Shown: positions 29,568 to 46,363, counted from the stretch's first letter. The stretch: DNA of 64,000 bases from Polyangiaceae bacterium (GCA_965222375.1 CBDCTZ010000008.1:224001-288000), one strand, 5' to 3'. The notes: generated from the sequence alone by a model not told the origin. Made by a program: numbers and translations.

Positions 29568-30860
29568 ATGGCAGAAATGGCGGGCGGATCGCGACGCGGA
29601 TTCTTGGGAGCCAGCCTGAGCTTCGGCCTGGGGCTCCTCGTGGGCGGACGCCTGGGGGCGCCTCGAGCCTTCGCGCCGGGATTGCCCATGCCCCTCAACG
29701 AGGACGAAACCGAGTACGTCACCGAAGCACTGGCGGCCCTGGACCGCACCAAGATCTGGGATACTCACGTACACATCGTCGGCTTGGGTCGAGGCGACAG
29801 CGGCTGCTGGGTCAATCCCAAGAGCATGAGCCACCTGCATCCGCTGAGGCGGCTGCGCTTCGAGATCTACCTACACGCCGCAGGAGTCACGGATCTGGCC
29901 CGAGCCGACGAGCTCTACGTCGCCCGCTTGTTGGAGCTGTTTCGGTTGGCCAACCCGACCGGCAAGATGCTCGGCCTGGCCTTCGACTACGCCGTCGACG
30001 AAAACGGACAAGAGACGCCCAAGTACTCGGAGTTCTACACGCCCACCGAATACGTCCTTCGTCTCGCCAAGCAGTACTCGGAGATCCTGCCTTGCGCCAG
30101 CGTGCACCCGTACCGCAAAGATGCCTCCGATCGCTTGCGTCGCTTCGTTCAAGAGGGCGCCATCGCGGTCAAGTGGTTGCCCAACGCCATGGGCATCGAC
30201 CCTCTGTCGTCGAAGTGCGACGCCTTCTACAGGACGCTGCAGGAGCTCTCCATTCCCCTGATCTCCCACGCGGGTGAGGAGCAAGCCGTCGAGGTCAGCG
30301 GCTGGCAGGAGTTCGGCAACCCACTGCGCCTACGGCGCGCGTTGGACGCAGGAGTGCGGGTCGTGGTGGCCCACTGCGCCAGCCTGGGCGACGTGGAGGA
30401 CCTCGACGCGGGGCCGGGCCAGGAGATCTCGGCCTTCACGGCCTTCATGCGCCTGTTCACGGACAAGCGTTACAAAGATCTACTCTACGCTGACATCTCC
30501 GCGATGACGCAGTTTTCTCGATGCGGCCGCCCTCTGCGCGAGATCTTGCTTTCCACGGATTTGCACCCGCGACTGCTCTACGCCTCGGACTACCCCCTAC
30601 CCGCCATCGACCCCTTGGTCTCGACGCGGATCTTGGAGCGCGAGGGCTATCTCACACCCGAAGATCGCGAGAAGTGCAACCGCCTATATCGGAAGAACCC
30701 ACTGCTCTTCGACCTGGTGCTCAAGCGCAAGCTGCGCCTCGAACACAAGAACAACACCCACGTCTTTTCTCCGGCCGTGTTTCAAACCGCCAACTTCTTC
30801 TCCCCCCCGCCCGCGGCGGCTGCGCCAACCCCGCCCGTAGCCCCCGCGGCCCAACCCTAG
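29568..30860 (+). CDS. Tat-exported amidohydrolase family protein
   Basis: SRRGFL Tat motif; DTHVH, SVHP, SHAG, AHCAS, YASDYP. Confidence 0.85.
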   Translation: MAEMAGGSRRGFLGASLSFGLGLLVGGRLGAPRAFAPGLPMPLNEDETEYVTEALAALDRTKIWDTHVHIVGLGRGDSGCWVNPKSMSHLHPLRRLRFEIYLHAAGVTDLARADELYVARLLELFRLANPTGKMLGLAFDYAVDENGQETPKYSEFYTPTEYVLRLAKQYSEILPCASVHPYRKDASDRLRRFVQEGAIAVKWLPNAMGIDPLSSKCDAFYRTLQELSIPLISHAGEEQAVEVSGWQEFGNPLRLRRALDAGVRVVVAHCASLGDVEDLDAGPGQEISAFTAFMRLFTDKRYKDLLYADISAMTQFSRCGRPLREILLSTDLHPRLLYASDYPLPAIDPLVSTRILEREGYLTPEDREKCNRLYRKNPLLFDLVLKRKLRLEHKNNTHVFSPAVFQTANFFSPPPAAAAPTPPVAPAAQP

Positions 30861-31531: not shown

Positions 31532-31605
31532 CGGGGTGTACCTCAACCTGGTAGAGGGCCGGCTTTGGGTGCCGGACGTTGAGAGTTCAAATCTCTCCAC
31601 CCCGA
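31532..31605 (+). tRNA. tRNA-Pro (TGG)
   Basis: Full cloverleaf: CGGGGTG/CACCCCG acceptor, CCTC/GAGG D arm, CCGGC-TTTGGGT-GCCGG anticodon arm, GAGAG-TTCAAAT-CTCTC T arm; CCA not encoded. Confidence 0.97.
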
Positions 31606-32925
31606 CTGGTTTTTCCACTTCGCCTTGCCCCGTTTGGACACAGCTCCTGTCCGAACGCCAACGCGGAGCTTTGGCAACGCCGCCTCAGGGAGGGCCCGAA
31701 TCCTGCCACCGCTCTGGAGATAGCGCTGGTGCGCCTCCAGTGAGGCGTGCCCTGCCAGAGCTGTGGCTTGCTGGACATTGACGTCTGCGTCAGCCAGGGC
31801 CTGCGAGTAGGCCCGGCGCCAGCTGTGAAAGTCCACGGGCAAAGTGAAGTCGGTTTCGACGAACAGCTCCCGTTCCCGCGGCGTCATTTCGCGCTTCTGC
31901 TTCCAAGCCATCCGAACCAACTTGCGGCGGTTAGACCTGATGGTTTCGCGCTTCTCTAGCCCGTCGACCCCGAAGGCGCGCCGCAGGTCACGACGGAACG
32001 CCAGGGCGTGGCTCGTCTTGCCCTTGGGCTCCCCGGCCCGCTGTCCACGCCTCGACGGGAACAAGTGGCCCGTCGTTGGACGCCCTGCCCGCTCCCACCA
32101 GTCCCGCAGGATCGGCCGAAGCATCTCCGGCACCTCCAAGAGTTGGGGGCGCCGGGTCTTGCGCCTCGGTGCCCAACCCCACGTAAAGCCCGCGGCGGTG
32201 CCACCAGGGCCGGGCTCAAGGTCAAAGGCCTCCCAACACAGCGTGTGCAGGTCGCCGGTGCGCAGCCCGCCGAACATCCGTGCGATGCAGGCCATGGTTT
32301 GACGCTCCAGCACTCCATTGCGCCATTCCTTCTCAGGATGCTCCCAGGCCAGGTAGACCGCGAGTTCTTGGTCCGTCAGAACGGCTCGCTCTTTCCTAAC
32401 CGCCTCGGGAAACTTCGGCATGGTGACCCCATCCGCGGGGTTCGCATCGACGGCACCCTCGCGGACCAGCGCTGCGAAAACGTTGCGGAGGTCTTGCTTC
32501 AGGTGTGTGACGGTCTGCCTCGACTTGCCAGCGGCCTTGCAGTCGTCCAGCACGGTGTTGAGGTCGGTCGTTGGGATCTTGGTGACCTCGGCGTCCCAGA
32601 TCGCCGTCGCGTAGGCCTTCAGCCTCGCGATCTCGTCTTTGGCTCCGACCACGCCATCCGAGACCCGCGCCTCGTGCACGCGCTCCGCAACATAACCGAA
32701 CGGCTCGGCCCGCGCCGCGGTCTCAGCGGTGGGAACAATGCCTCTCTCAGCGTCGGCCACGAGCTTCGCTAGCTTTCGCCGTGCAAGTGTCTTGTTCGCT
32801 GTTCCGAGTGGGAACCAGCGTTTCTCTTTGACAGGTTTCCCGTCGACGTAGCCGACAACGACGGGGATGCGTGCGGCCCAGCCTGCCTTGGTCCAGATCA
32901 GTGTGCCTGTTGGTTTTCGGGGCAT
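31543..32925 (-). CDS. int: tyrosine recombinase/integrase (reads through attL into the tRNA antisense)
   Basis: GGLRTGD (R), DFHSWRR (HxxR), LAGH, HQRY (Y); N-terminal arm-binding-like domain. Confidence 0.93.
   Translation of the reverse strand: MPRKPTGTLIWTKAGWAARIPVVVGYVDGKPVKEKRWFPLGTANKTLARRKLAKLVADAERGIVPTAETAARAEPFGYVAERVHEARVSDGVVGAKDEIARLKAYATAIWDAEVTKIPTTDLNTVLDDCKAAGKSRQTVTHLKQDLRNVFAALVREGAVDANPADGVTMPKFPEAVRKERAVLTDQELAVYLAWEHPEKEWRNGVLERQTMACIARMFGGLRTGDLHTLCWEAFDLEPGPGGTAAGFTWGWAPRRKTRRPQLLEVPEMLRPILRDWWERAGRPTTGHLFPSRRGQRAGEPKGKTSHALAFRRDLRRAFGVDGLEKRETIRSNRRKLVRMAWKQKREMTPRERELFVETDFTLPVDFHSWRRAYSQALADADVNVQQATALAGHASLEAHQRYLQSGGRIRALPEAALPKLRVGVRTGAVSKRGKAKWKNQSGWRDLNSQRPAPKAGPLPG
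31562..31614 (+). repeat. attL core (3' part of tRNA-Pro plus 9 nt)
   Basis: GCTTTGGGTGCCGGACGTTGAGAGTTCAAATCTCTCCACCCCGACTGGTTTTT, identical to 45457-45509. Confidence 0.95.
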
Positions 32926-32939
32926 GTCAGGTCCTCTAG

Positions 32940-33866
32940 CTAGATGCGGTAGGGCGCCTGTGAAGGCCGAACCAGATCCGGCGAATACCCATGTGTTTTG
33001 AGCAAAGACCGAGCCCCGTGTGGTCCAGTTTCGGGATTCTGTAGCGGACCAAGTATCACGCTCTCCAGCTCAAATTGCCGTCCCCTCGCCGCCGGGATCT
33101 TCACGAAAGGGACAACTCCGGTCGCCCGCGCGCGATGGCACACCAAGTTGGTCTTGAGTGACCCCGCAGCCAAGAGCCTCCACTCGCGTTCCTCTGCGAA
33201 CGCGGAGTGCTTCGCTCTCGGCACAAGGAGGGCAGCCTGACGGAGCATTATCACCACCGCACGCTTCGCAACCGGGACCACGTCGGACACGTTGCGGTCC
33301 GAGACGAACTTGGCGAAGGACTCGGCTAGACGGCGAAACTGATGTCGCATCCGCGCCTGGAGCTTCTGCTCATCGTATTCAACCTTCGCAAGCATCAGCG
33401 CCAACGAGTCTGGCGTGAGTTCCACGCCTTCTTTCGGCATGGGGAGTTGCGCGAAGCCAACCGAGAAGCCCGCACCACCACTTGCATAGCCACGCCACTG
33501 GCTCAAGAGGTCGCCATCCTCAGAGAACGACGCGAGGAACAGATCCGCGACCTCACTCAACGGGACCTTCTTATGGGCCTCGCAGAACTTGCGCAACAGT
33601 TCGTCCGCAAGGTGGTTGCCGGTGGTGACCGTCTCCGCTGCAGCGTCCACCAGACGCTGACCGAGTTTCAGTTCCTCACGATCGTTCAGGTGCAGCGCGT
33701 GTGTCGCCCAAATCTCGCCTTTCTCGATCATTCCAACGAACCCCGTCGCGTCGGTGTAGTGGTAGAGCGGCACGTTCTGGGTGTCGTCGAGTTCTTCCAG
33801 CGAGAGCGCCTCTTCGAGCTCGACGAGTAGTGATTCCTCCTTTGAGTTCGACTCGGAAACTGTCAC
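32940..33866 (-). CDS. DUF2971 domain-containing protein
   Basis: LYHYTD..G..IWAT..LND..E, SFSEDGDLLSQWRGY, KHSAFAEEREWR. Confidence 0.85.
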   Translation of the reverse strand: MTVSESNSKEESLLVELEEALSLEELDDTQNVPLYHYTDATGFVGMIEKGEIWATHALHLNDREELKLGQRLVDAAAETVTTGNHLADELLRKFCEAHKKVPLSEVADLFLASFSEDGDLLSQWRGYASGGAGFSVGFAQLPMPKEGVELTPDSLALMLAKVEYDEQKLQARMRHQFRRLAESFAKFVSDRNVSDVVPVAKRAVVIMLRQAALLVPRAKHSAFAEEREWRLLAAGSLKTNLVCHRARATGVVPFVKIPAARGRQFELESVILGPLQNPETGPHGARSLLKTHGYSPDLVRPSQAPYRI

Positions 33867-33932
33867 GGCCGCGCCTCTGTGAGGGCATGCGCTTCCGTGG
33901 CTGCTTTCTCCGTCATGGCACTTCTCCTGGCC

Positions 33933-34118
33933 TCAGCGCTTCCGCTTCGTCTTGGGGCGGGCAGCGGCCCTGATCGGCACACCGAGCTGTACGGCGTAGG
34001 CCCTAACGGCCCGCCGCACGATGTCCGAGCGCTTCAATCGCTCGACCTGTGCGCAAGCCTCCAGCAGCTCCAGGTCATCCGGAGGGAACTTCACACACAC
34101 CGTGGTCAGATCGGCCAT
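33933..34118 (-). CDS. ribbon-helix-helix (CopG-like) DNA-binding protein
   Basis: TTVCVKFPPDDLELLEACAQVERLKRSDIVRRAV beta-alpha-alpha pattern. Confidence 0.7.
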   Translation of the reverse strand: MADLTTVCVKFPPDDLELLEACAQVERLKRSDIVRRAVRAYAVQLGVPIRAAARPKTKRKR

Positions 34119-34229
34119 GGAAGACACGGTAATACTGTGTCTTCCATGAATCAAGCACGAGATGCCAAAAAACGGCCTTCAAGCAAGCGCATGTGTCGTT
34201 CCCGTTGAACGCGGTAGGATGTCCACGAG

Positions 34230-34754
34230 ATGACCGACCGGAGCGACCCGCTCAACCAAGGAATCGAGAAGGCAGTCCCACCTCGCAAGCAACCACACTG
34301 GTTCTGGCAGGGCCTGAGTACTGGTGTCGTCGGGGGACTCCTCGGCGCGGGAGTCGGCATAGTGGGTGGCGTCTATCACCTAGGAAAACTCGAAGAACGG
34401 CTCGACACAATCAGGGCAGATGTCACCGGCAAGCTGGAGGCGGTGCGAGCAGAGGTGCGCGGGAACAGAACACTCATCGAAAACCACAAGGCCTGGCACG
34501 ATGGGCGCGCGGGCAGTCCAGTGCACGCAGCGCCAATGCCATCGGCCAACCCGCCTGGGAAGCGCGACATGCCTTGGACACCGGAGTTCCGTAAAGCGCG
34601 AGAAGCGTATTGCACCAAGCGCTGTGGTCAGAAGTACCCTGAGACCACGTGCCACGGAGAATGTCGTCAGCAGTTCCACGATTGCGGCATGGGCTGCAGA
34701 GCAGACCCAAAGGACCCGTGCTTCAAATCTTGCGTGAAAGCGCTGAATCGCTAG
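34230..34754 (+). CDS. membrane-anchored protein with Cys-rich C-terminal domain
   Basis: Gly-rich TM, short coiled coil, 8-Cys tail CTKRC..TCHGEC.. Confidence 0.6.
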   Translation: MTDRSDPLNQGIEKAVPPRKQPHWFWQGLSTGVVGGLLGAGVGIVGGVYHLGKLEERLDTIRADVTGKLEAVRAEVRGNRTLIENHKAWHDGRAGSPVHAAPMPSANPPGKRDMPWTPEFRKAREAYCTKRCGQKYPETTCHGECRQQFHDCGMGCRADPKDPCFKSCVKALNR

Positions 34755-34775
34755 GACAACCGACGGACGTGCCTG

Positions 34776-35663
34776 ATGAGGGACTACGAGCTTGACGAAC
34801 TGAAGGAGTTGTCCAAGCGGCTCGATGCCAAGTCGACCCTCCGGGAAGATGAAGTCAAGGTAAAATCGCGCACGGGTTGGAGCGTGACCGTGGAGGCACC
34901 TTCCATTGAACACTTGAACGTAAGAAGCACAGACCGACGGCGGGCTCGACTCACTCTCAAATCCGCACTGATCGAGCAGCTAGGCGAGCGCGGTCTCCTT
35001 CGGCCGAGCGAGCTGGATGACGTTCAATACGGCTACGGGGATGCGGCAACCCACAACCAAGAGGTGTTCGAGGACCTCTCCGGCATTCTTGAGCAAGGCC
35101 GGGCGGAAGAAGAGCTTCAGAAGTGCCTTGGGCGACATCCCGACATCTGGCGCTTTCTCGTCGGAACGAGGCCGCAAGTTGTCGACAAGATGCCACTTGG
35201 GCAGGCGTTTGTAACGGACTTCGTTGTGTTTGGCGCCGTCCTATGGGGTCAGTCGGAGACACCGACGGCAACGTTTGTGGAGATAGAGCGCGCTGACGCG
35301 AAGCTGTTCACCGCGAAAGGCGATCCTACGCGCGAACTGACGCACGGATTGCGCCAACTGCGAAACTGGAGGCAGTGGATCGCGGACCACAAGCAACAGG
35401 TGCGCGAACACCTGCTGGAGAAGACGCACCTTTCGTGGGAGCGACACGGCTACGAGGGACGGAGCGCTGGTGTTCCTGCGTACGGCTTCGCTGACGAATA
35501 CCTTCTGGTCATCGGTCGCAGGGGAAGCATGACTCCCGCCCAACGTTGGCAGTTGCAGCAGCTGTCTGCGGAACTGCCGAAAACGAATATCGTGACGTAC
35601 GATCTACTGCTGGACGTAGTTTGCCCAGAAGCTCCCTGGCCTCGTTGGATGGTCGAGGACTGA
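34776..35663 (+). CDS. Shedu (SduA)/DUF4263-family nuclease, copy 1
   Basis: EEELQKCL..HP, TDFVV, FVEIER..KLF, LTHGLRQLRNWRQWI, LLVIGRR, IVTYDLLL: DUF4263 motif order. Confidence 0.8.
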   Translation: MRDYELDELKELSKRLDAKSTLREDEVKVKSRTGWSVTVEAPSIEHLNVRSTDRRRARLTLKSALIEQLGERGLLRPSELDDVQYGYGDAATHNQEVFEDLSGILEQGRAEEELQKCLGRHPDIWRFLVGTRPQVVDKMPLGQAFVTDFVVFGAVLWGQSETPTATFVEIERADAKLFTAKGDPTRELTHGLRQLRNWRQWIADHKQQVREHLLEKTHLSWERHGYEGRSAGVPAYGFADEYLLVIGRRGSMTPAQRWQLQQLSAELPKTNIVTYDLLLDVVCPEAPWPRWMVED

Positions 35664-35796
35664 CGGCCCCAACAGCCGCCGAACCTCGATTGTCGCTGCC
35701 CGCAATAGTCCGCAGGCACCTGCTTCGCACTCGGCGCATTGACGCGGACATGGCCTGCCGTTCCAATGACTGCCGTTCGACACGAAAGGCCGAACC

Positions 35797-36684
35797 ATGG
35801 GCGATGACGAGCTAGAAGAACTGGAGCACTTGGCGAAACGTCTGGATCCCGACGCGAGCATCGTAGAACACGAGACGGACACGCCGCCCGCTCCCAAGTG
35901 GGTCGTGACTGTCGATGCGCGAACGTTGGAACCGGTGGAAATTCGATGTGCGAGCCGATCGCATGCCAGGCGTACTCTCAAGTCGTCCCTCCTTGAGCTA
36001 CTGGGCGAACGCGGGATGCTTCGCGCGCCCGAGGTCAACCGAGAAAACTGGGACCAGTCTGTTCCAGGAATGCAAAACGAGAAGGCGCACGCCGAGCTCC
36101 TAGACGTGCTCGCGAGCGGACGAGTCGAAGAGGACCTTCAAAAGTGTCTTGAGCGACACCCCGATATCTGGCGCTTTCTCGTCGCAACTAAGCCGCAGGT
36201 GGTGAACAAGATGCCTCTGGGGCATGACATGGTGACCGACTTTGTCGTTTTCGGCGCCGCGCCCTGGTCTCAATCTCAAATGCCGACGGCGACGTTTGTC
36301 GAGATTGAGCGCGCTGACGCAAAAATGTTCACTGCGAAGGGTGATGCGGCGCGGGAATTGACTCATGGCTTGGGCCAACTTCGAGATTGGAAACGGTGGA
36401 TTGGCGACCACAAGCAGGAGGTTCGGGAGTACCTCCTGGAGCACACCGCACTCAGCTGGGAGCGACATGGTTTCGAGGGCGAGTACGGCATGCCCCCATT
36501 TGGATTCGAAGACCGCTACCTACTTGTCATCGGCCGCAGGGCGAGCATGACGTCGGCCCAACGCTTTCAGCTGCACAAGTTGTGCGAAGACACTCCCAAA
36601 ACCACAATCGTCACGTTCGACATGCTCCTTGACGTGGTGTGTCCCGAAGCGCCGTACTTTCCGCCCTGGATGTGGGACGACTGA
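35797..36684 (+). CDS. Shedu (SduA)/DUF4263-family nuclease, copy 2
   Basis: Paralogue of copy 1 with the same motifs (EEDLQKCL, TDFVV, VEIER, GQLRDW, VIGRR, VTFD). Confidence 0.8.
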   Translation: MGDDELEELEHLAKRLDPDASIVEHETDTPPAPKWVVTVDARTLEPVEIRCASRSHARRTLKSSLLELLGERGMLRAPEVNRENWDQSVPGMQNEKAHAELLDVLASGRVEEDLQKCLERHPDIWRFLVATKPQVVNKMPLGHDMVTDFVVFGAAPWSQSQMPTATFVEIERADAKMFTAKGDAARELTHGLGQLRDWKRWIGDHKQEVREYLLEHTALSWERHGFEGEYGMPPFGFEDRYLLVIGRRASMTSAQRFQLHKLCEDTPKTTIVTFDMLLDVVCPEAPYFPPWMWDD

Positions 36685-36765
36685 CACGGACTACCCCTCT
36701 CGCCAGCAGGCCTTGCTTCGCGAGAGGGTCTCGGGCTGGGTGGTCCGCAAGCCACACCTCACCGG

Positions 36766-37680
36766 TCAGGGAAGCGCGAACGTTGAGAGGTCGATAGGCT
36801 CACCAGTTGCCAGGTGAAGAAACGGCTTCTGGAGGCGACCAGCAGCTGCGGCGTACGCCTTCGGGCTTGGCATTAGCTCAGGCTCGCGCAAGCCCAACAC
36901 ACGCGCAAGCCCGGCAGCGGAGCAAGGAGCCAAGCCACACTTGAACAACTTCCTAGCACACGGTTCGAAACCGTCATGGACAGTTCCCCAGGGGAAAGCG
37001 TCAACGAACCCTGTGCCAGGTTCAGGCCGCAGCTTGCTAGCCTCAACGAGGCCGGCACGGACGGATGCCACGACCTGGGCCGTACACACGTCCGAGTTCT
37101 CATCGGTGGGAAAGTCGGCGATGAGCATCTTCATTTTCGTGGGAAATGCTGTCCAACATTTCGCTCGTTCTTGCCCGGTGCGCTTGCCGCCGGCAGCTTG
37201 GTAGCAAAGGCCGTGGCACGTCTGATCGTTGCAACGCCTCTGGCAGCGTTCGTAACTCTCCGTGTACTGGAGAGATCCGTCGCGGCGTTCGTAGATGACG
37301 CCGCGGGCACAAGTATTGGCCTCGTTGTACTTGACCTCGGCGCGCCGCAGGATGGGGTAGCTGCTCCGCAGCGCGCGCGCCATTGCCGTGGCCTGCAGAA
37401 GCGTGCGTGGTTGCACTTCCGGAGTCTCCGCCGCCTGCGTGGCTTCCGGCTGTGCGCCACGCCGCGCGAGCAAGTAGACCGCAAGCCCCAGGACGACAAC
37501 AACTCCAATGAGCCAAGCACCTCGTGCTGAGTATCTCCTGCCGCTTTGTGGTCGTCCCGTTGGTCGCAGCCCTGACGGATGGTCCACGGCACGGTGCTGC
37601 GCGAGACCACTACCACAGTGCTTGCACTTGATCGCTTCCGTCCGGATCTCCTCGGCGCAGTATGGACATTTGCTCGTCAT
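36766..37680 (-). CDS. zinc-ribbon membrane protein with Cys-rich external domain
   Basis: CPYCAEEI..AIKCKHCGS, single TM, CQRRC..TCHGLC. Confidence 0.7.
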   Translation of the reverse strand: MTSKCPYCAEEIRTEAIKCKHCGSGLAQHRAVDHPSGLRPTGRPQSGRRYSARGAWLIGVVVVLGLAVYLLARRGAQPEATQAAETPEVQPRTLLQATAMARALRSSYPILRRAEVKYNEANTCARGVIYERRDGSLQYTESYERCQRRCNDQTCHGLCYQAAGGKRTGQERAKCWTAFPTKMKMLIADFPTDENSDVCTAQVVASVRAGLVEASKLRPEPGTGFVDAFPWGTVHDGFEPCARKLFKCGLAPCSAAGLARVLGLREPELMPSPKAYAAAAGRLQKPFLHLATGEPIDLSTFALP

Positions 37681-37763
37681 CTTCGCTCCGCTAGGTCGCC
37701 CAGCTAGACACGGTACTCGAATACCGTGGCCGCGACAACGCGACGGGGCCTACGTGGTCGCAA

Positions 37764-38027
37764 ATGCCGAAGCGCACGCGTTCTCCGGACACGACGCTGC
37801 TGCGCCAGGTGGGCGCTCGCGTTCGGCATGCGCGACTGGCCGCAGGATTGACACAAGAGGACGCGGCCGGACAAGCAGGAATGGACTGGCGTCGGTGGCA
37901 ACGTCTCGAGGCTGGCGAGGTTAACGCGACCATTGGCACGCTCGGACGCGTGGCGAATGCGCTTGGCTCGGATCTTTGGTGCCTTCTCGGGTCGACTGAT
38001 CCGCGAAAACCTCGACGCCCAAGGTAG
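37764..38027 (+). CDS. XRE-family HTH regulator
   Basis: VGARVRHARLAAGLTQEDAA..WQRLEAGEVNATIGTLGRVANAL. Confidence 0.9.
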   Translation: MPKRTRSPDTTLLRQVGARVRHARLAAGLTQEDAAGQAGMDWRRWQRLEAGEVNATIGTLGRVANALGSDLWCLLGSTDPRKPRRPR

Positions 38028-38112
38028 GCTCCTTGATCGGAGAGCGTCGGGAAGAAAGCGCCCAACTCGGCATCGCAGCAAGTCGTTACGCACGCAGCAC
38101 ACGTCAGCCCCA

Positions 38113-39723
38113 TCAGTAGGGACCTCGCCGCCAAGACTCACTGCTTTCTCGATCCGGGAGACGCGTACGTGTCCCGCAAACGATGACGCTACGACCCGCC
38201 CAACATTCGGGGTCATCCACGTACCCGAATGCCCCCCCCTGCGTGTGCATCGAACCGGGATCTCCTCCGGATTGCGCCCCGACCGTCGAGCTACTTCGCG
38301 AGGCGTGCCACAGCGCCAGCACGAAGGCCGACACGAGGTCACCGTGGGCTCCGCCGCGGCGGGGCGAGGTTATCTTGAGCCCGCCGCCAGTCGTTGGCTG
38401 GCTTACGACCTCGCCAAGCTGCACCGCAAGGCGCGTCAAAGTGCTCGGAATTCGGATGCGCCCAGCATGCAGCAGCTCACGCGCGACGCCGTACGATCGC
38501 GCCTTGCCCATCTGGCCACCCGGAGCCTGATACAGCTGTAGGTCGTGGGAGGTCGCCGCCTCGCGGACAGCTTCCAAGTAGAAAGCGTCGCTGCTGAATC
38601 CCGAGCCGCCATAGTCCCTCACCATCTGGCAGAAGCCGCCAGTGACCACACTCGGCACCAGAGGTTTGCCCTTGGCCGGCCTGCGCTCGAAGGCGGAACA
38701 GACGACGTACGAGGGCCGATTCTCAGAGCTCGCGGCGACCACAACACCCGCTGCCGCATCCTGACGGGCTGCGAAGTCGTAGCCGGCTCCGACCACCCAA
38801 TGACCAAGGTTCGAGAGCGAGTCGAGGGCGACCGGACACGGCAAATTGTCATCGAGCGCGTCCGAAATCGCGCCCCTGTCGAAGTACGCACCTGCACCAC
38901 CGGTGAACGGCACACAGTCGAACTCGCGCGCAGCGTTCAGCGGATCTCGGACTCGCTCGGCCTCAACAACAGCCCGAATCTTTGGACTATCGGGACGCAT
39001 CAGCTCGGTCGGAGCAACGCACGCCAGTGCTGAACTTGGCGAGCCGAGGTTTTGGCGGACGAGGTCATGCAGCAAACCCGACTCCAACCATGCAGTGCTG
39101 ATAACGCACAGAACTCCGTCGGCGACGATTCGCACGGCGAGCGCACGGAACAGCTCTGAATCGTTGATCTCCCCGCTGTCGCCGTCGCGGAAGAAAGCCG
39201 ACTCGTCCATCAGTCCAGCCAAGAGCGTGCGACCTCGTAGCGCCGACCCGCCGCGCGTTGCCGGCAGGGCAGTCACAACCACGCTGTAGCCGTCAGGTCG
39301 CCTGATCGTGAGCGAGTCAGAGCTGCGCCCGGCAACGAACCGCGCAAGGTCAGGCGACGCCATGGCCGCCCCCGCCGCGTAGCGCAGGCCCTGACGCGCC
39401 AATCGCATGTCCGGAGCTACAATCGGGCAGAACCCAAGTTCGCCCGCAGCAAGGCCCGCACAACTTGCGGTGAAAGCTCGATACAACAGGAACAAAGAGC
39501 AGAGCCAGGTACCACCCGCACGTGCACCCTTTGTCACTGCGAATACTCCACGCGCCTCCAACGGCACCGTGTAGACATCGCCAAACAGCTGCCGGGCGTG
39601 GTCGCGCGCCGCCCCAGTCAGGTCGCATGGCTCGACGGCGTCAAATCCCACGCGAGCGAGAACCCGTTGCGCGGGCGTAAGATCGACACGCAGAACGCAG
39701 TCCGCGAACTCTTCGAAGCGCAT
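38113..39723 (-). CDS. terL: phage terminase large subunit
   Basis: LTPAQ, deviant Walker A KGARAGGT, RGRTLLAGLMDESAF Walker B, VISTA coupling motif, AGYDFA..D and HGDLVSA nuclease motifs. Confidence 0.8.
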   Translation of the reverse strand: MRFEEFADCVLRVDLTPAQRVLARVGFDAVEPCDLTGAARDHARQLFGDVYTVPLEARGVFAVTKGARAGGTWLCSLFLLYRAFTASCAGLAAGELGFCPIVAPDMRLARQGLRYAAGAAMASPDLARFVAGRSSDSLTIRRPDGYSVVVTALPATRGGSALRGRTLLAGLMDESAFFRDGDSGEINDSELFRALAVRIVADGVLCVISTAWLESGLLHDLVRQNLGSPSSALACVAPTELMRPDSPKIRAVVEAERVRDPLNAAREFDCVPFTGGAGAYFDRGAISDALDDNLPCPVALDSLSNLGHWVVGAGYDFAARQDAAAGVVVAASSENRPSYVVCSAFERRPAKGKPLVPSVVTGGFCQMVRDYGGSGFSSDAFYLEAVREAATSHDLQLYQAPGGQMGKARSYGVARELLHAGRIRIPSTLTRLAVQLGEVVSQPTTGGGLKITSPRRGGAHGDLVSAFVLALWHASRSSSTVGAQSGGDPGSMHTQGGAFGYVDDPECWAGRSVIVCGTRTRLPDRESSESWRRGPY

Positions 39724-39848
39724 GGCGTCTGTACTCCTTTCGACAAGTGCGCTTCTGGCAACCGCTCAGACGGCCAATGTCCCTGGCTGTCCGAGCGGCA
39801 GGGCCGCGACTTCGACCCTTCGCGGTGGAGCCTCCGCTGCCAAAAAAC

Positions 39849-40457
39849 TCATCTCCAACGCAGACCGAGCCACTCCTCGCATTGATAGCCAGCGAGTCCT
39901 GCGTCGTGAACCGCTCTGCGGAACGTCGCGGCAAACTCGCGGTACCGGGGTTGGACTCGGCCGGGGCTGCAATCGCGTAGGCCGTGCTGCTTGCAGAACT
40001 GCTCCAAGCGCGCCGCCGCGCTTGACCGCCGGGCAACGCAGCTCAGCTCTTCACGCACTGCATCAAGTAGCGCCATTGCCCGCGTTCCGAAACTCTCCAG
40101 GCTCAGCTCTGGCTCCCCCCAGGCCACCGCCGCATCCTCGTCGGCTGCGTCTAGTTGGGCGCGAAAGCCCACGTCTTCCCATCGACGCTCGGAACGCGCG
40201 AGTGCCTCACTCGCCAACCGATGTTGCGTACGTGCAACGTCAATCTGCGCCTTCGCGGCTGCCACGCCGCTTGCATCCAACCGACCGAGAGCCGCCTCGG
40301 TTGTTGCGTGTTCGGCTGCGGCCACCGCCTGGGTAGTCTCCGCTGCCAACTCGTCAACGCGCTCGCGCTCGCTCTCGATGCGCTCACGGAAGGCGCGGCT
40401 TGCGCGCCCAAGCTCTTCGTCGGCCGCGTCCGCCGAGGACGAAGTTGCCGCACTCAC
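39849..40457 (-). CDS. hypothetical coiled-coil protein
   Basis: Ala/Glu-rich helical ORF coupled to 40454-40792. Confidence 0.55.
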   Translation of the reverse strand: MSAATSSSADAADEELGRASRAFRERIESERERVDELAAETTQAVAAAEHATTEAALGRLDASGVAAAKAQIDVARTQHRLASEALARSERRWEDVGFRAQLDAADEDAAVAWGEPELSLESFGTRAMALLDAVREELSCVARRSSAAARLEQFCKQHGLRDCSPGRVQPRYREFAATFRRAVHDAGLAGYQCEEWLGLRWR

Positions 40458-40792
40458 AGTCTGCCTCCATCGATTACTCGGCGCTGCGAACGAAGCCGGC
40501 GCGCGTGCCTAATTTGCGCGTCCAGCGGCATGCTTGCGAAACTCGCGTCTCGAGCGCACATGAAGTTGATCAGCTTCTCCGTAACGTTTCGCCCGGCCGT
40601 CGTCGAAAGGTCCACCGGTTCGTTGGTGTCCCGTTCATTCTCTTCCAAACGGGTGACAAATATTGCGAGCGCTCGCGCCACCGGCAGGCTTCGATCCTGG
40701 GCGCTGAGCGTCTGGTAGACGTCCGCCAGAGAGTGGTTGTGAAGCTGTTCGGCGAGCGCCCCAAGGTCTATCCTGTTTAGAGTTCGTCGCAT
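40454..40792 (-). CDS. hypothetical protein
   Basis: Overlapping chain of minus-strand ORFs in the element. Confidence 0.55.
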   Translation of the reverse strand: MRRTLNRIDLGALAEQLHNHSLADVYQTLSAQDRSLPVARALAIFVTRLEENERDTNEPVDLSTTAGRNVTEKLINFMCARDASFASMPLDAQIRHARRLRSQRRVIDGGRL

Positions 40793-41493
40793 GATTTGGT
40801 TCTTCCCTTGTGATTCGGGGCGCCTCCCGAGGTTGTTTCTGTATCGTTGTCGCTAGAGGCCGCTGATGGACGCGCTGAGAGCGTTTGGGCACCGTCGGTG
40901 CTCGGGTGCGCCGTCAGGGCGGAAGGCTCGCCAGCGGGCCCATCAGAGCCCCCGATGGACCACCAAGCCGGAGCCGGAGCGCTCTTCACACGTGCCTCGG
41001 CCTCGCGTGCGCAGAGTTCGTGAGCCGCAAGCAGGTTCTGGCGGCTGTCATTCGCAAGCCTGCTGCCAAGCTGCACTTCGCCCAGAACCTCAAAGGCAAA
41101 TCGGCTCGCAGCCAGCTGAAGTGCGGCAGACGCGATGATGCTCGATGGTGCCGGTCCACACTCGCCGCCCCCGACGCACTGAGCCAACCGCCGGACATGC
41201 AAGCGCCGGAAGGCCTTCGCAGCACCCGCGTATCGCTCAAACCGCGGATCCGCGAAGGTGTCTCCCAGCGCAACCCGCCGAGCCAGGCGCGACTTCCCCG
41301 CTCTCGCCTTCCCACCCAGGGCCGACAGCGCCCGGTGGCTTTCCGCATCCGCGGGGCGCCCATTGGCATCGCGGCGAATCTCCGGTTCGCGTGGCCGGTT
41401 CAGCGCCGCCACGCCGGCCGGCAGTTCATCCGCCGACAGCACCTCCACTCGGGGCACACCGGCGCCGTTTCCATGGCCACTGCGCAGGCTCAC
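40777..41493 (-). CDS. hypothetical protein, candidate small terminase
   Basis: RRDANGR..ALGGKAR basic N-terminal motif, helical core, upstream of terL; function is inference; GTG start chosen. Confidence 0.4.
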   Translation of the reverse strand: MSLRSGHGNGAGVPRVEVLSADELPAGVAALNRPREPEIRRDANGRPADAESHRALSALGGKARAGKSRLARRVALGDTFADPRFERYAGAAKAFRRLHVRRLAQCVGGGECGPAPSSIIASAALQLAASRFAFEVLGEVQLGSRLANDSRQNLLAAHELCAREAEARVKSAPAPAWWSIGGSDGPAGEPSALTAHPSTDGAQTLSARPSAASSDNDTETTSGGAPNHKGRTKSCDEL

Positions 41494-41779
41494 TGGGAGC
41501 CTCCGCAAGTGCGCGAAACCATTGGGGCCACATCGCTTTGTCCAAACACTCGTGTCCGAACGCAGCCGGAAACGCCTGCAAAGGAGCTACACGGAGCTCC
41601 TGAACGCCGGCTGAGCGAGCCGACGTGCGAAGGCTCATGGGGCAACAACTTCGCGCCCAGCGCCACGGCATGCGCGGCGCCGTGATCCGCTACGCTGCCG
41701 CAGCCGCCGAACTTCCGGGTTCGCGCCTGCGTATGTCGCCGGGGGGGGCAAGGTCGACTCCCGACTTTCGGCTCAGTGC

Positions 41780-41880
41780 TGACGCCACTGACAGACCTGA
41801 CACGCTCTCCAAAGTCACGGGGAGCGCGCGCGCGCGCGAATGCTTCTTTGTGAAGACCGTCAACCGCGTCAGGCTCGTCA
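41780..41880. other. candidate replication origin: symmetric iteron arrays
   Basis: TGAC at 41780/41789/41798 mirrored by GTCA at 41859/41868/41877 around an alternating GC run (41824-41838), right after the helicase gene. Confidence 0.6.
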
Positions 41881-43242
41881 ATCTTCATGGTCGATCCCCG
41901 TTGAAAGCTCGACGGCGTACCGCCGGGCGCGGCCATCAGATCTCGATGGCAGCCCAAGCAGCCGCATGCGTTCACCAAAAGTGTTACTGGCGACGGGTCG
42001 GTGGCCATTCTCGCCCGCCCACGTGCGATACGCCCGGTAGAGCTTGTCGGCAGCCATGCCCTCGATTACCGGTGCATTGAGGGCAAGCTTCCTCGTCGAC
42101 GCCTCCACGAACGCGCGAACCTGATCGGCGCGAGCTCTCCAGCGATCCTTTGCTCGGACCGAGCTATCAGGCACCGTGAACATGCCGTTTGCCAGGACGC
42201 GCTGCGCGCCACGGAGCATCCAGCTGACCACTGCGGCCCCGTCACGACGCAGGATCTCGTCAGCCAAGTTCACATTCTGTTCGGTCTCATCGAAGATGCG
42301 GTTGAACTGCAAGACCATGAGCCGACGCCAGAAGCCGTGCGTCTGGTCCGTGGTCCCGGGCAATCGGTTCGCGCTGTAGATGTGACCTGCGACCGGCTTG
42401 AAGCCGAAAGGGCTCTGACGAATTGCACGCGCCGTCGTCGTGTCGCCTGCCACTACCGACTTCCAGGACTCGGAATCCAAGATGTCTGCTTCAGGAAGTT
42501 CGGAAACCACATTCAGCAGCTTCCCGGCGAGAGCCGCCCGCCGATACTCTTGGCCGATGTCCTGTGGCGCGATGCTACAGACACTGTTCGGCGGCATGCT
42601 TCGTTCGGCAACAGCAGCCAGCACACCCTTCCCGTTCGCGCCGTCGCCCACGAGCACGAGTGCACGCTGAAAGCGAGTAGCCAGGCCGAGCAGAGAAATG
42701 CCGAGGTACTCCTGCACCAGCTGTACTTTCTGTTGGAGATCGGAGTCGCCTCGAAATACAGAACGAAAGAACTGCAGCAGCGCCACCGGCTCCGAATCGA
42801 AGGTGTAGCCAAACCTGTACGCGAACCGTGCCCGGTGCTCAGGACAGTGCTCATGCTGAATGATCCGGTCGCCCGTCACCTCAACGAATGAAGACGCGAA
42901 CGCAACGCCTCGCCGAGCCTCGTCGAAGAAACGCGGATCCGCGAGCTGGTCGGCCGCTAGTTTGAGCGTACCGCCTACGTCGGAGGCCTTTAGGCGCAGA
43001 GGCTTCTTTTCCCCGGTAACCTTGGTGCCAGCAAAGCCCTGCACGATTCGGCTGAGTCTGGTGGGCTCCACCCGGTCGAAGACGCCGCGACTCGCAACGT
43101 ACTGGTAGACGAACCCCTCAGCGAACGTTGTGCACGCTTCAGCCGTGAGCTTCCCAACGAGACGGTCCGCACACTCAACGTGGTCTCCGCGCGCAAACGG
43201 TGTACGGTCGAGCGGGGTCACCTTTGGGGCCAGCACGGTCAC
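41878..43242 (-). CDS. P4/D5-family SF3 helicase without primase domain
   Basis: D5_N-like region, GDGANGKG Walker A, LAGKLLNVVSE, HIYSANRLP, GFWRRL, C-terminal wHTH. Confidence 0.9.
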   Translation of the reverse strand: MTVLAPKVTPLDRTPFARGDHVECADRLVGKLTAEACTTFAEGFVYQYVASRGVFDRVEPTRLSRIVQGFAGTKVTGEKKPLRLKASDVGGTLKLAADQLADPRFFDEARRGVAFASSFVEVTGDRIIQHEHCPEHRARFAYRFGYTFDSEPVALLQFFRSVFRGDSDLQQKVQLVQEYLGISLLGLATRFQRALVLVGDGANGKGVLAAVAERSMPPNSVCSIAPQDIGQEYRRAALAGKLLNVVSELPEADILDSESWKSVVAGDTTTARAIRQSPFGFKPVAGHIYSANRLPGTTDQTHGFWRRLMVLQFNRIFDETEQNVNLADEILRRDGAAVVSWMLRGAQRVLANGMFTVPDSSVRAKDRWRARADQVRAFVEASTRKLALNAPVIEGMAADKLYRAYRTWAGENGHRPVASNTFGERMRLLGLPSRSDGRARRYAVELSTGIDHED

Positions 43243-43745
43243 TTCGCTCTCCGGAGCTGTTCCACGGCGCTCGCAGCGTCGATGGCTCCAACGCGGAGCG
43301 CAGCCGCCACCGACTGGCTCAGATTGATCAGTCGCCTCCGACTCGCGAGCTCCTGCAGGCTAGCGACCAGCTCCTCCAGACCACGGCGCGACCTGATTGC
43401 CGGTGCCACGTCCAATTCATCCTGGACACGTCGCGCGCACCACGCGCGATCAAGCCGAACGCAGACAGCGGCAACTCGGTCCGAGCCAGCAGGACTGTCG
43501 CAGTCCTGAACCCCGAGCAACACTTCCCGCGCGAGAGGATCCAGCAGCCACGCAAGCTCCACCTGGTCTGGGGCAAGCGCACCCGCGAAGATTGCATCCA
43601 GAGCAGACCATTCACCAATGCGATCACAAGGCAGCGGCGGCGGTCCAAGCGTATCCGTCAGTCGCAGATCTCGGCGCATGCGCCGCAGCTGCTGCTCTAT
43701 CGCCGCAAGGGAGTCGACCGAGCCGGGTGCCGCACGCATGCTCAT
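43239..43745 (-). CDS. stand-alone DnaB N-terminal-domain-like protein
   Basis: PPLPCDRIGEWSALDAIF..LLDPLAREVL..LQELASRRRLI parallels the DnaB-NTD pattern. Confidence 0.5.
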   Translation of the reverse strand: MSMRAAPGSVDSLAAIEQQLRRMRRDLRLTDTLGPPPLPCDRIGEWSALDAIFAGALAPDQVELAWLLDPLAREVLLGVQDCDSPAGSDRVAAVCVRLDRAWCARRVQDELDVAPAIRSRRGLEELVASLQELASRRRLINLSQSVAAALRVGAIDAASAVEQLRRAK

Positions 43746-44068
43746 CTTTCGGCACCCTCAACGACGCGCAGCCCACCGCGTTTCTGCTGCCGGCGTATCC
43801 AATCGATTACTGCTTCGAGCTCGAACCTGGCGGAGTCCCCAAGCCTCAGCTCAGGAAAGCTTGCCCGCTTGCGCAGACGGTCGAGCGAGCCCAGGCTGAC
43901 CCCGAGGGCGCGCGCGAGTGCGGCCCGGTCCAACAGTGCTGGCACCTGCTCCTCCTCCGGGACAAGTAGCACGCGTAGCCGGGCCGCCAACTCGGGGTCC
44001 GATTCCAGCACCGCGACAGCCTCAGCAAGAACCAACGATGCCACCGAAACTCGGCGAGGCGTGTTCAC
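43742..44068 (-). CDS. AlpA/excisionase-like HTH protein
   Basis: LLDRAALARALGVSLGSLDRLRKRASFPELRLGDSARFELEAVIDWI. Confidence 0.8.
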   Translation of the reverse strand: MNTPRRVSVASLVLAEAVAVLESDPELAARLRVLLVPEEEQVPALLDRAALARALGVSLGSLDRLRKRASFPELRLGDSARFELEAVIDWIRRQQKRGGLRVVEGAER

Positions 44069-44283
44069 CGACGCCCCACAACCCGCGCCATCAGTTGCGG
44101 CGGGCGGTGAATTCCGAGTCTCGCGGCGGCGGAATCCACGACAGCGTACGTCGCCAACGCGACAATGCGTACTTGTCCTGCGTAGCAACGCCGGATCGTC
44201 GCAATCCCGTGACCGGTCTCAATAACGAGGTGTGCTACCTGGAGATCCGTGAGTTTCGGAACGGTAACGTCGGTGTCCTGCAT
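44065..44283 (-). CDS. small HTH-like protein
   Basis: VAHLVIETGHGIATIRRCYAG; GTGA coupling to next gene. Confidence 0.45.
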   Translation of the reverse strand: MQDTDVTVPKLTDLQVAHLVIETGHGIATIRRCYAGQVRIVALATYAVVDSAAARLGIHRPPQLMARVVGRR

Positions 44284-44347
44284 CGCCCGGAAATGAGTTC
44301 CAGGTTTCGGTCCGCCTGTGAACGGCCGCACTGACCGGCCCCCTTGG

Positions 44348-45139
44348 CTACCGTGATTTTTTGATGTTTCTAGCGATGCGATCGCGAGCCTCGGCCTCGC
44401 TTTCCAGCGGCTGCTGAGACTCAATGCCAGCCGCGAGCAAGAGGTCCGCCGCCACGGTCGCGGGTGCCCACTCTTTCAGCGCCGCAACTGCGCGCTCAAT
44501 CGGCACGTTCTCGAAGCGCTCGTCATGGGTCGCCAGAGCCACTGCCCTCAGCGTTGCTTTGGCAGCGGCTGACGCATCGCCGGAGTCCTCCGCTAAGGGG
44601 AATCGCGCTATGATGCCCAGCATCTTTCGATTCCGCGACTGTTTGCCGGGTCCCCGATCCGTACCGCACGCCGCGACTCCAAGTCTTTTCAATCGCTCCC
44701 AGTGCTCAGCTCCGACGTCCGGAGAGAGCGCCCGGGCAACGAACGTGATCACTTCCAGTGCTGCGCGGTCGTGTGCGCGCAGATCCCCAAGCTCCGACGG
44801 AAGCAGGTCGAGTCCTGCCTGGATGAATCGCGCCTGAAGTTCAGGGACCGGCGCCACCGTCTTTTCAGCGCGTCTGGCCCCCAGGGCTCGCGCAAAGGCG
44901 ACGATGGCCGCTGCGCCTTCGTCGCTCAACGCCAGCGCTGCAAGCACCTTCCGCTCGATGGTGCGTACGCGCTCTCTATGCAGATCGGCCTCGGCTTGCA
45001 GCTCGCCTATCCTCTCGCCGACGCTAACCGGTGTTTCGGGCACGCGTCGCTTCGACAGGCTAGCCGCATGCGTTGAATCTGACGCCCGCGAACTTCGCCT
45101 CCGCGACTTTCTCGTGCCGTGTGCTTTTCCTTTCGACAT
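44348..45139 (-). CDS. hypothetical protein
   Basis: Long ORF starting MSKGKAHG, basic N-terminus, helical. Confidence 0.55.
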   Translation of the reverse strand: MSKGKAHGTRKSRRRSSRASDSTHAASLSKRRVPETPVSVGERIGELQAEADLHRERVRTIERKVLAALALSDEGAAAIVAFARALGARRAEKTVAPVPELQARFIQAGLDLLPSELGDLRAHDRAALEVITFVARALSPDVGAEHWERLKRLGVAACGTDRGPGKQSRNRKMLGIIARFPLAEDSGDASAAAKATLRAVALATHDERFENVPIERAVAALKEWAPATVAADLLLAAGIESQQPLESEAEARDRIARNIKKSR

Positions 45140-45197
45140 TGAACCCACTTCGTCACCCTCGGCCCTGCTGGCGGCGAGGCCTCTCTCTATGGTTGTA

Positions 45198-45455
45198 TCA
45201 CCCTGCCTTGGACTGCCCGCCTTTGCCCGCGCTCTCAAGCAGACGCTCAAGCTTCAACGCTAGCTCACGCGCTCGGCGCGGGTCATCTGGCAGTGCAGCT
45301 CGGATTTGGCGAACCCAGCTCAAGATCAAGTCCGTTTGCAGCGAGGCCAGCGTTTGGACACTCGCTTCGGACACTACTGACACATCCTCGGGAGATCCTG
45401 AGCGATCAGGCTCGACCCCATGTGCTGCATTCGACGTATTTTCCGCTAGTTCCGT
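45198..45455 (-). other. alternative 3' end of integrase (85 codons plus stop), joined in the excised circle
   Basis: In frame with the att-encoded KNQSGWRDLNSQRPAPKA shared with the integrase end. Confidence 0.75.
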
Positions 45456-45456
45456 A

Positions 45457-45509
45457 GCTTTGGGTGCCGGACGTTGAGAGTTCAAATCTCTCCACCCCGA
45501 CTGGTTTTT
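45457..45509 (+). repeat. attR core
   Basis: 53-bp perfect copy of 31562-31614. Confidence 0.95.
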
Positions 45510-45636
45510 GCGATTCCGCGCGGCAGCACGATCTGCCAAAAAGCACCCTTGCACGGAGCTGGCGCACTTCCGTTGGTTTGTGCGATTCCGCGCGGCAGCA
45601 CGATCTGCACCCCTGCACGGAGCTGGCGCACTTCCG
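45502..45636. repeat. two imperfect direct repeats (~65-70 bp) after attR
   Basis: TGCGATTCCGCGCGGCAGCACGATCTGC..TGCACGGAGCTGGCGCACTTCCG twice. Confidence 0.85.
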
Positions 45637-45649
45637 CTTTCGGAGCCGC

Positions 45650-46363
45650 TCAACTCGTCGGGCGTTTCACGTAGACGGTGGCGACGTGCTCGGGGCCAAA
45701 TTCGAGTTGCGTCGTACCGGCCGGCAAGTGGGTTTCCTCTAGCGGTGTTTCGACGTCCGCAACGTAGCGAGGGCCATCGGGGGATTCGATGCGCTGGCAA
45801 ATGCGCACCTTGAAGCTGGCGTTCTTACCCTCGTCCTTCGGGCCGTATACGTAGAGATTGACCGCCTGTCCCTCGCTGAGGCTTTCGCGTTCGCTCCGCT
45901 CGGGGATCTGAAACCGCGGATAGTAGTGGTCCGCCAGATGTTCGGCGTTCTGGATCCGCATGCCGGGCCGAGCGATGTCGCCGGGCGCAATCCCCTCGAA
46001 AGTCTCCGGGCTCCACTCTCGAGGCGTCACGCCGTAGTGATTCGCGCCATCAGGATTGGCCCCAGCTGCCAGCAGCGCCTGGATGATCGCTTCGTTCCGC
46101 TCCTGCGCGGCCATGTACAGCGGCGTCTCGCCGGTGCGGTGGTAGCGCAGCTCGGTATTCGCCCCCGCCTCGAGCAATCGCTGAACACCTTCCAGCCACC
46201 CCGACATGACCGCGAGACTCAGCGCCGTCATGCCCCACTCGTCCTGCATGTCGAGCAAGCCCGACGCCAGCCCCCGCTCGAGAACCTCCAAGTCCAACGC
46301 CGGCGAAAAGCCCCCAGCGTTGGAAAACCACTCACGATGCTCCATCAACTCGCCCCCATACAT
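45650..46363 (-). CDS. ankyrin repeat protein
   Basis: GMTALSLA..LLEAGAN, GETPLYMA..LLAAGANPD, YGVTP. Confidence 0.85.
   Translation of the reverse strand: MYGGELMEHREWFSNAGGFSPALDLEVLERGLASGLLDMQDEWGMTALSLAVMSGWLEGVQRLLEAGANTELRYHRTGETPLYMAAQERNEAIIQALLAAGANPDGANHYGVTPREWSPETFEGIAPGDIARPGMRIQNAEHLADHYYPRFQIPERSERESLSEGQAVNLYVYGPKDEGKNASFKVRICQRIESPDGPRYVADVETPLEETHLPAGTTQLEFGPEHVATVYVKRPTS

Follow-up and report, generated by a model that had tools for sequence, protein, structure and literature searches.

The integrase of the Myxococcus phage Mx8 has been treated as a curiosity, an enzyme whose reaction rewrites its own gene. According to excerpts of a review, PMC6070905, the phage attachment site (attP) of Mx8 lies within int, and integration makes a new 3' end that modifies the behavior of the enzyme toward its attachment (att) sites; the same excerpts state that Mx9 integrates 'by a similar principle'. 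Passages of the Islander paper, PMC4383910, describe the integrases of both Mx8 and SSV, the latter representing the archaeal fuselloviruses, as extending across attP. Here we report on a locus of a Polyangiaceae bacterium (genome of 10.56 Mb in 16 contigs) in which a comparable arrangement was found. The window, that is, the whole stretch of DNA analyzed, comprises 64,000 nucleotides (nt) of contig C8 (C8:224001-288000). Positions 31562-45509 of the window are very probably an integrated P4-like element at a tRNA-Pro gene whose tyrosine integrase gene crosses attP, a judgment that covers jointly the whole of the explanation given below. The first-pass annotation of this DNA had proposed that attP lies inside int, that recombination swaps the C-terminus of the enzyme and that Mx8 provides the precedent; a 53-bp repeat, an open reading frame (ORF) without a stop and frames in register bear out the first two claims, and the excerpts cited above bear out the third. 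Comparative support, obtained from sequences, suggests that an intragenic attP with a C-terminal swap is general in a sizeable clade separate from Mx8 Int. In the limited library searched, the literature on intragenic attP sites beyond Mx8 and SSV contained no description of this clade.

The integrase gene across the attachment site

A repeat of the 3' part of a tRNA gene at both ends is the usual signature of an element that has integrated into the 3' part of that gene. Such a repeat bounds a segment of 13,948 bp here, with both cores counted (13.9 kb; coordinates of all features are given in Table 1). The two copies of the att core are identical over 53 nt and extend from the anticodon stem of tRNA-Pro through the 3' end of the gene plus 8 nt. 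ARAGORN and Rfam agree on tRNA-Pro as the site of the element, as first annotated. The attB site in the tRNA gene was restored on integration, with an intact tRNA-Pro gene at attL and a displaced 3' fragment at attR.

The int ORF crosses the core at attL without a stop and ends in ...KNQSGWRDLNSQRPAPKAGPLPG followed by a stop codon (...PAPKAGPLPG); its last five codons and the stop come from the host-derived 5' half of the tRNA, read in antisense. The minus-strand frame at attR (45800 to 45198) reads ...KNQSGWRDLNSQRPAPKATELAEN...ARELALKLERLLESAGKGGQSKAG and a stop, which is the same core-encoded peptide followed by 85 further codons. The attL and attR frames are in register across the core (offset of 1020 nt, divisible by 3). 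When the ends were joined by coordinates with a script, the stop came 23 codons after the core start in the integrated form and 103 codons after it in the excised one. The two forms have 455 residues in common, followed by 5 residues in the integrated and 85 in the excised form, which gives the proteins of 460 and 540 amino acids (aa) that had been predicted. The locus combines two features of the Mx8-type arrangement, namely an att core inside the int ORF with no stop ahead of it, and a frame that in the excised form runs past the core and codes for a conserved segment.

The encoded protein was assigned to the tyrosine integrases by a match to PF00589 (29.5 bits against a cut-off of 27.1, residues 219-405) and to phrog_1 (integrase, E 2.6e-24). 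Residues R222, K256, H367, R370, H393, and Y402, which we take to be catalytic from what is generally known about tyrosine recombinases as a family, are invariant in 60 aligned homologues. All of them lie upstream of the switch at residue 455, in agreement with the first-pass annotation.

Selection on the extension and its predicted fold

An open frame of 85 codons taken alone is within the reach of chance in a genome of 63-65% GC. Among 100,000 random positions and strands of contig C16, 30% were followed by at least 85 codons without a stop, and the evidence has therefore to come from comparison. That the extension is nothing but a chance open frame in GC-rich DNA is nevertheless hardly credible, being contradicted by conservation biased toward synonymous change, by profile matches in independent elements and by a confidently predicted helical hairpin.

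Two full integrase paralogues are present in the same genome, in elements at tRNA-Asp (contig C5) and tRNA-Arg(CCG) (contig C16). The int ORF ends on the tRNA antisense in all three elements. Past attR, only the int frame is open, for 102, 104, and 86 codons counted from the core start; in the other two, a stop appears after 8-34 codons. The Pro and Asp extensions can be aligned over a block of 51 codons, the conserved part being about the last 50 residues. Differences in this block fall on the first, second, and third codon positions 15, 10, and 31 times, respectively. Of its codons, 25 differ synonymously only and 15 non-synonymously; the non-synonymous divergence (dN) is 0.235 and the synonymous divergence (dS) is saturated. 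The nucleotide identity of the two extensions is only 73% over 85 nt, whereas other modules of the two elements are 90-93% identical. The excess of third-position changes, the dN value, the saturated dS and the low nucleotide identity indicate that the extension has long been coding and is under purifying selection in the frame of the integrase.

The swapped part had been described at first as an amphipathic helical tail, which AlphaFold2 (AF2) models of the window's own extension and of P0021, a natural long form of 554 aa with a tRNA-Pro-type core, support in the shape of a helical hairpin. In the model of the own extension (8-row alignment, A4), residues 1-29 are disordered, one helix spans residues 30-54, a turn lies at an LPDDP motif and a second helix spans residues 60-78, with a predicted local distance difference test (pLDDT) score of about 80-88. 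The model of P0021 (60-row alignment) has a confident integrase body to about residue 420, a disordered stretch at 429-506 and helices at 508-524 and 528-543 with pLDDT of 54-75. The swapped part is predicted by these models to be a flexible linker of about 30 residues followed by a helix-turn-helix hairpin. Prediction of a homodimer from two copies of extension residues 30-85 gave a score of 0.38 against a mark of 0.42, which speaks neither for nor against a dimer.

The wider integrase family

A homologue search yielded 327 relatives, and the best 120 were examined. The catalytic domain of these 120 has a conserved end (Y402 ... AALP, at about residue 418), after which the tails diverge, many of them being translated tRNA antisense. 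The tails were matched to antisense translations of the 75 tRNAs of this genome with thresholds of our own choice, each label being that of the nearest tRNA of this genome. An antisense-tRNA peptide was found after the catalytic Tyr in 80 of the 120 proteins, with 8 amino-acid labels; the other 40 gave no match at this stringency. In 32 of the 80 the tail follows the tRNA into its 5' half and stops within 5 residues, and in 21 it follows the tRNA and reads on. A further 25 exit the tRNA at position 27 or later, near the anticodon, and continue for 20-160 residues (2 belong to none of these groups).

A profile built from the Pro and Asp extensions was searched against 1.84 billion representatives and gave nine matches at E <= 1e-3. 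Six of the nine bear the module, and the remaining three are TPR-like repeat proteins, which were taken as spurious. P0123 is the tRNA-Asp attR ORF of this same genome and is not independent. In P0125, the module comes after an antisense-tRNA peptide of a different type, and P0128 is contiguous from the catalytic Tyr motif of the integrase over the AALP segment and an antisense-tRNA peptide to the module. P0126, P0129, and P0131 are ORFs of 70-77 aa with the module alone. With P0021 included, the module aligns as a motif of about 45 residues. A genuine coding module under selection, the hairpin is met again behind tRNA cores of different kinds. In homologous elements, no stop follows directly on the core, and both the open frame beyond attR and the extension that it encodes are conserved in related elements.

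The short ORFs bear on the reading that the extension forms a small gene of its own in the element, such as a regulator with an internal translation start, that merely lies in the int frame and is never meaningfully fused. This is highly improbable, since register with int is kept in all three elements despite differing cores and poorly conserved, stop-free linkers of 30-50 codons, even though the module is called on its own in the other assemblies that hold P0126, P0129, and P0131. The GC content at third codon positions (GC3) is also lower in the extension than in int (0.58 against 0.75, unremarkable beside int) and only about the last 50 residues are conserved, as could be expected of a separate gene; P0128 and P0021, however, are contiguous ORFs of integrase, core and module, and five of six viral contigs carry one long ORF. 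In these related loci of IMG/VR, the long form extends 126-170 residues past the conserved body in five of six, an antisense-tRNA peptide is found in mid-tail in four of six, and a tRNA gene is found in none of the six.

By contrast, a full tRNA gene overlaps the 3' end of int at ten loci, and the ORF follows the tRNA antisense in all ten (the three elements of this genome, L008, L011, L012, L016, L019, the second int of L022, and L023). In a distant branch represented by L014 (44% identity), int stops 29 nt before its tRNA, so the feature is not general to every relative. No second copy of the core was found within the flank (up to 10 kb) of the six loci with a tRNA at or just after the int 3' end (L008, L011, L012, L014, L016, and L019). 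A contig of 12.9 kb from a metagenome-assembled genome (MAG), L010, carries the long form; it has no terminal overlap, and genes for HTH_36 and IstB/DnaC-like proteins stand downstream of int. This gene content fits element DNA on both sides and is not proof of a free attP form. Matches at E <= 1e-60 were found in only 4 of 151 genomes sampled from the order, this one included, and the family is therefore sporadic in the order. A search of genome contigs with a single protein gave no relatives, and an alignment was used as the query instead.

In the genome of a relative, two integrases of the family lie 17 kb apart (L022, G138:C1:2154500-2174499). One ends on tRNA-Val antisense, and the tail of the other resembles the antisense of a tRNA 5' half at a place where ARAGORN called no tRNA. 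In the present genome, a remnant of another family integrase lies just outside the attR core of the tRNA-Asp element (L005, C5:202505-205708; query residues 373-442, 44% identity). Its frame continues across the core and on into the resident extension, making up the 298-aa ORF P0123, and the remnant seems to be left from an earlier tandem integration at this tRNA. An integrase fragment at C5:287105-287272 (L004; query residues 367-422, 66% identity) stands about 60 nt from tRNA-Val(TAC) (C5:287331-287403) and is probably what remains of a fourth family element in this genome.

Candidate arm-type sites

The word TTYGGACAS was observed 7 times in the 64-kb window against 1.8 expected, a number reached in 0 of 100 shuffles, and four of the seven copies lie in the att arms. 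Related words are present in both arms of the Asp and Arg elements, and the left-arm copy stands 104-114 nt from the core in all three elements. The words are no more than candidates for arm-type Int sites.

Because these words lie inside both coding tails, they speak for another reading, in which the overlap is a by-product of packing the attP arms against int; the tail would be translated but neutral, and its conservation would come from DNA signals such as arm sites or a promoter for the leftward operon. In the int frame of the Pro and Asp elements, the left-arm word is translated as V-S-E, and some of the 'protein' conservation at that place could be that of a DNA site; the candidate DNA sites are, however, mostly in the linker, one of the right-arm words having no overlap with the hairpin helices and the other sharing with them the first three codons of helix 1 only. 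The codon-position pattern of the hairpin block, together with the saturated dS and the dN given above, speaks for constraint at the protein level, and elements with other cores yielded the module in the protein profile search. The extension would, in the circular form, stand just upstream of the o300, HTH_17 and primase genes and in the same direction, but no sigma-70-like promoter was found in 44900-45700 (a weak test). Overall, this reading appears improbable. Scans for sigma-70 promoters and terminators around both att sites gave nothing above shuffled controls.

Proposed mechanism

In the preferred reading, in which the integrase gene itself crosses attP, the crossover region is the anticodon-side end of the 53-bp core that the element shares with tRNA-Pro. 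Integration parts the first 455 codons of int from the last 85, and the prophage form closes with 5 codons of antisense of the tRNA 5' half. Excision, or the arrival of a circular form, restores the 540-aa protein with its linker and hairpin. By analogy with IntP and IntX of Mx8, the long form, made from unintegrated DNA only, would alone be fully proficient for integration between attP and attB, and the truncated prophage form would be damped for further integration and would still, with the HTH_17 protein, be able to excise. Which form and activity the enzyme has would then be set by the recombination state of its DNA. The hairpin itself may serve oligomerization or contacts to arm DNA or to the excisionase. 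A switch of directionality or stability, as first proposed, presupposes that the two forms differ in activity, which we infer from Mx8, whose biochemistry is carried over to this integrase by analogy.

Several observations weigh against this interpretation. The integrase is only a distant relative of Mx8 Int, and the chance frequency of open frames and the lower GC3 of the extension, both given above, count on the same side. The sequencing contigs of four runs, all from one study, contain neither the attP nor the attB joint, and contigs drop rare forms, so that this absence is no statement about excision; contigs of the same runs break at both cores, and one of them crosses attR into the flanking host DNA. 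When the extension alone was used in a word-indexed search of proteins longer than 350 aa, nothing was found. No long form in the databases has closely the same tail, the nearest being P0021 with a tail-only phmmer E of 0.026 (Pro) and 9e-4 (Asp) in a set of 121 sequences; in this small database, the tail of the Arg element (C16) also matched P0037 at E 0.0012. By eye, the tail resembles the Mx8 tail and many of the other tails of long forms, but this likeness is statistically not significant. That all tails end in a similar amphipathic hairpin is an impression gained by eye, to which the two AF2 models may be added.

A mosaic integrase

When the Pro and Asp elements were compared (31733-33620 with C5:189339-192000), window positions 32270-33620 had 97-100% nucleotide identity. 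The first 218 codons or so of int and the DUF2971 gene lie in this part. In the remainder of the catalytic domain, identity is down to 63-74%, and the tails cannot be aligned. The pattern points to a recombination breakpoint inside int, at about the boundary of the core-binding and catalytic domains, and suggests that a recent exchange placed one N-terminal half on two old C-terminal/att cassettes with different tRNA targets. Related words of the TTYGGACAS type are found in the arms of both elements. Tentatively, the att-proximal block, consisting of the C-terminal catalytic half, the tail, the tRNA core and the hairpin, might be a transferable retargeting cassette, with the N-terminal arm- and core-binding half as a freely exchanged chassis; we regard this as possible, if rather doubtful. 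If true, about 200 residues and the attP joined to them would determine which tRNA is targeted in the clade. The cassette would also include the state-dependent hairpin and would offer a natural design for retargetable, direction-controlled integrases in GC-rich bacteria.

Other genes and flanks of the element

The element pairs a P4-family primase with a tyrosine integrase at a tRNA gene, the combination that marks it as P4-like (Table 1). The first-pass annotation had called it a satellite. The term is plausible in view of the primase, the integrase and the single weak match resembling the terminase large subunit (TerL) among the structural genes looked for; any dependence on a helper is putative. 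No match to capsid, portal or Psu/Sid-like proteins was found among the submitted ORFs in Pfam, PHROGs and NCBIfam, several ORFs being without a name. The defense cargo consists of two paralogous Shedu genes whose products, 295 aa each, both score above the cut-off of PF14082 for the DUF4263 nuclease domain of SduA. The paralogues share a 300-nt repeat (D1) at 73% identity, and the tRNA-Asp sister element cannot be aligned in this region. A zinc-ribbon protein is also encoded in the element.

Table 1. Positions of the features of the tRNA-Pro element in the window, with the two sister elements of the same genome (contig named)
Feature	Position	Strand	Evidence or remark
tRNA-Pro(TGG), intact target gene regenerated at attL	31532..31606	+	ARAGORN; Rfam RF00005, 62.7 bits
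attL copy of the 53-bp att core (tRNA position ~31 to 3' end, plus 8 nt)	31562..31614		Exact direct repeat
Second core copy, at attR (3' part of the tRNA, displaced)	45457..45509		Exact direct repeat
Tyrosine integrase, integrated form, 460 aa	31543..32925	-	PF00589; phrog_1; catalytic residues invariant
C-terminal int extension, 85 codons + stop, joined to int only in the excised (attP) form	45198..45456	-	Purifying selection; profile matches
Predicted hairpin coding region, extension residues 30-78	45222..45368	-	AF2
Candidate arm-type Int sites, two TTYGGACAS words, inverted, inside the int tail coding region	31633-31641; 31647-31655	+; -	
Candidate arm-type Int sites, two TTYGGACAS words, direct, in the linker part of the extension	45353-45361; 45366-45374	+	
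DUF2971 protein, adjoining int	32940..33866	-	PF11185, 34.2 bits against cut-off 22
Two paralogous Shedu SduA nuclease genes, defense cargo	34776-35663; 35797-36684	+	PF14082 E 5e-13, 9e-15; PADLOC SduA E 4e-16, 5e-18
Terminase-large-subunit-like protein, weak	38113..39723	-	phrog_2 E 3.6e-9; PF17289 below cut-off
P4-family primase/helicase (DUF5906, D5-like)	41878..43242	-	TIGR01613, 139 bits against cut-off 108.7; phrog_864 E 1.7e-51; PF19263
HTH_17/AlpA-like protein, candidate excisionase	43742..44188	-	PF12728 E 4e-4, below cut-off; phrog_66 'excisionase and transcriptional regulator' E 1.7e-5
tRNA-Asp element	C5		45-bp core; 14,622 bp
tRNA-Arg(CCG) element	C16		45-bp core; 13,632 bp

In the host flank directly beyond attR, a tandem duplication of about 64-72 nt was observed at 45502-45636 (repeat families D3 and D4). 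At the start of each unit, the last 8 nt of the att core are repeated, as TGGTTTTT in the first and as TGGTTTGT in the second; the duplication could be a duplication of the tRNA trailer or an old att footprint. On the other side, ARAGORN called a tRNA-Phe of 91 nt on the minus strand at 30725-30815. This call is probably false, as Rfam gave no tRNA there and the position is inside a plus-strand ORF of 431 aa with a GC3 of 0.82. In contigs of runs X3 and X4, from two different samples (S1 and S2) of one study, position 31389 on the host side, to the left of the tRNA, is joined over 33 other letters to position 36342, which lies in the second SduA gene (depths of 13 and 5.6). The joint may belong to a related strain or to another organism with a different arrangement.

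Comparison with known systems

The data indicate that, in a large clade of integrases from Myxococcota and some other MAGs that is distinct from Mx8 Int, the arrangement is the rule. The clade has tRNA targets with at least 8 amino-acid labels and is found both in viral contigs of 45-50 kb and in satellite-like elements of 14 kb with defense genes. For annotation, this would mean that prophage int genes 'ending in a tRNA' and orphan attR ORFs of 70-110 aa are the two halves of one gene, and software for mapping islands must allow tRNA fragments that overlap int ORFs. For myxobacterial integration vectors, the long form, and not the chromosomal ORF, is probably the one to clone, if the analogy with Mx8 holds.

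In the phage Mx9, attP lies within int. In the SSV type, integration splits int into two separated parts and so disrupts the enzyme. The present integrase is like the SSV type in extending across attP and differs from it in that all catalytic residues stay in one ORF and the tail alone is exchanged. In the integration-dependent immunity of mycobacteriophages, an intragenic attP lies in the repressor gene and the part removed is a degradation tag, so that the C-terminus is tied to the state of integration. Here, in contrast, the gene is int, and the part removed is a predicted folded hairpin with no recognizable tag. The mycobacteriophage system is mentioned in the abstract of PMC4929511. Heterobivalent integrases of the lambda type share with this enzyme the N-terminal, core-binding and catalytic domains (as modeled by AF2 in P0021) and the repeated words in both attP arms; the int ORF of lambda, however, ends outside the core, and the arm sites described here are candidates only.

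The closest likeness in arrangement is to Mx8. As far as the excerpted sources describe the phage form (IntP) and prophage form (IntX/IntR) of Mx8 Int, the two systems have in common an attP in int, an attB in a tRNA gene, a shorter new 3' end, the retention of the catalytic residues and a host in the Myxococcota. In the Mx8 record AF396866, int occupies 5208-6809 and uoi stands just upstream. The tail of Mx8 Int contains, in our own reading, a T-arm-like peptide, whereas the identity block described here begins at the anticodon stem. Mx8 is a phage of 49.5 kb, in contrast to the P4-like element of 14 kb with its Shedu cargo. Significant full-length similarity between the two integrases was not found: a tblastn search of 50,697 phage records gave no match at 1e-5, pairwise blastp gave an E of 0.011, and hhalign aligned the two proteins with 96% probability and 24% identity over columns 82-302 only, that is, over the core-binding and early catalytic part. 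Overall, the integrase of the tRNA-Pro element would, by analogy, work like Mx8 Int while belonging to a different clade.

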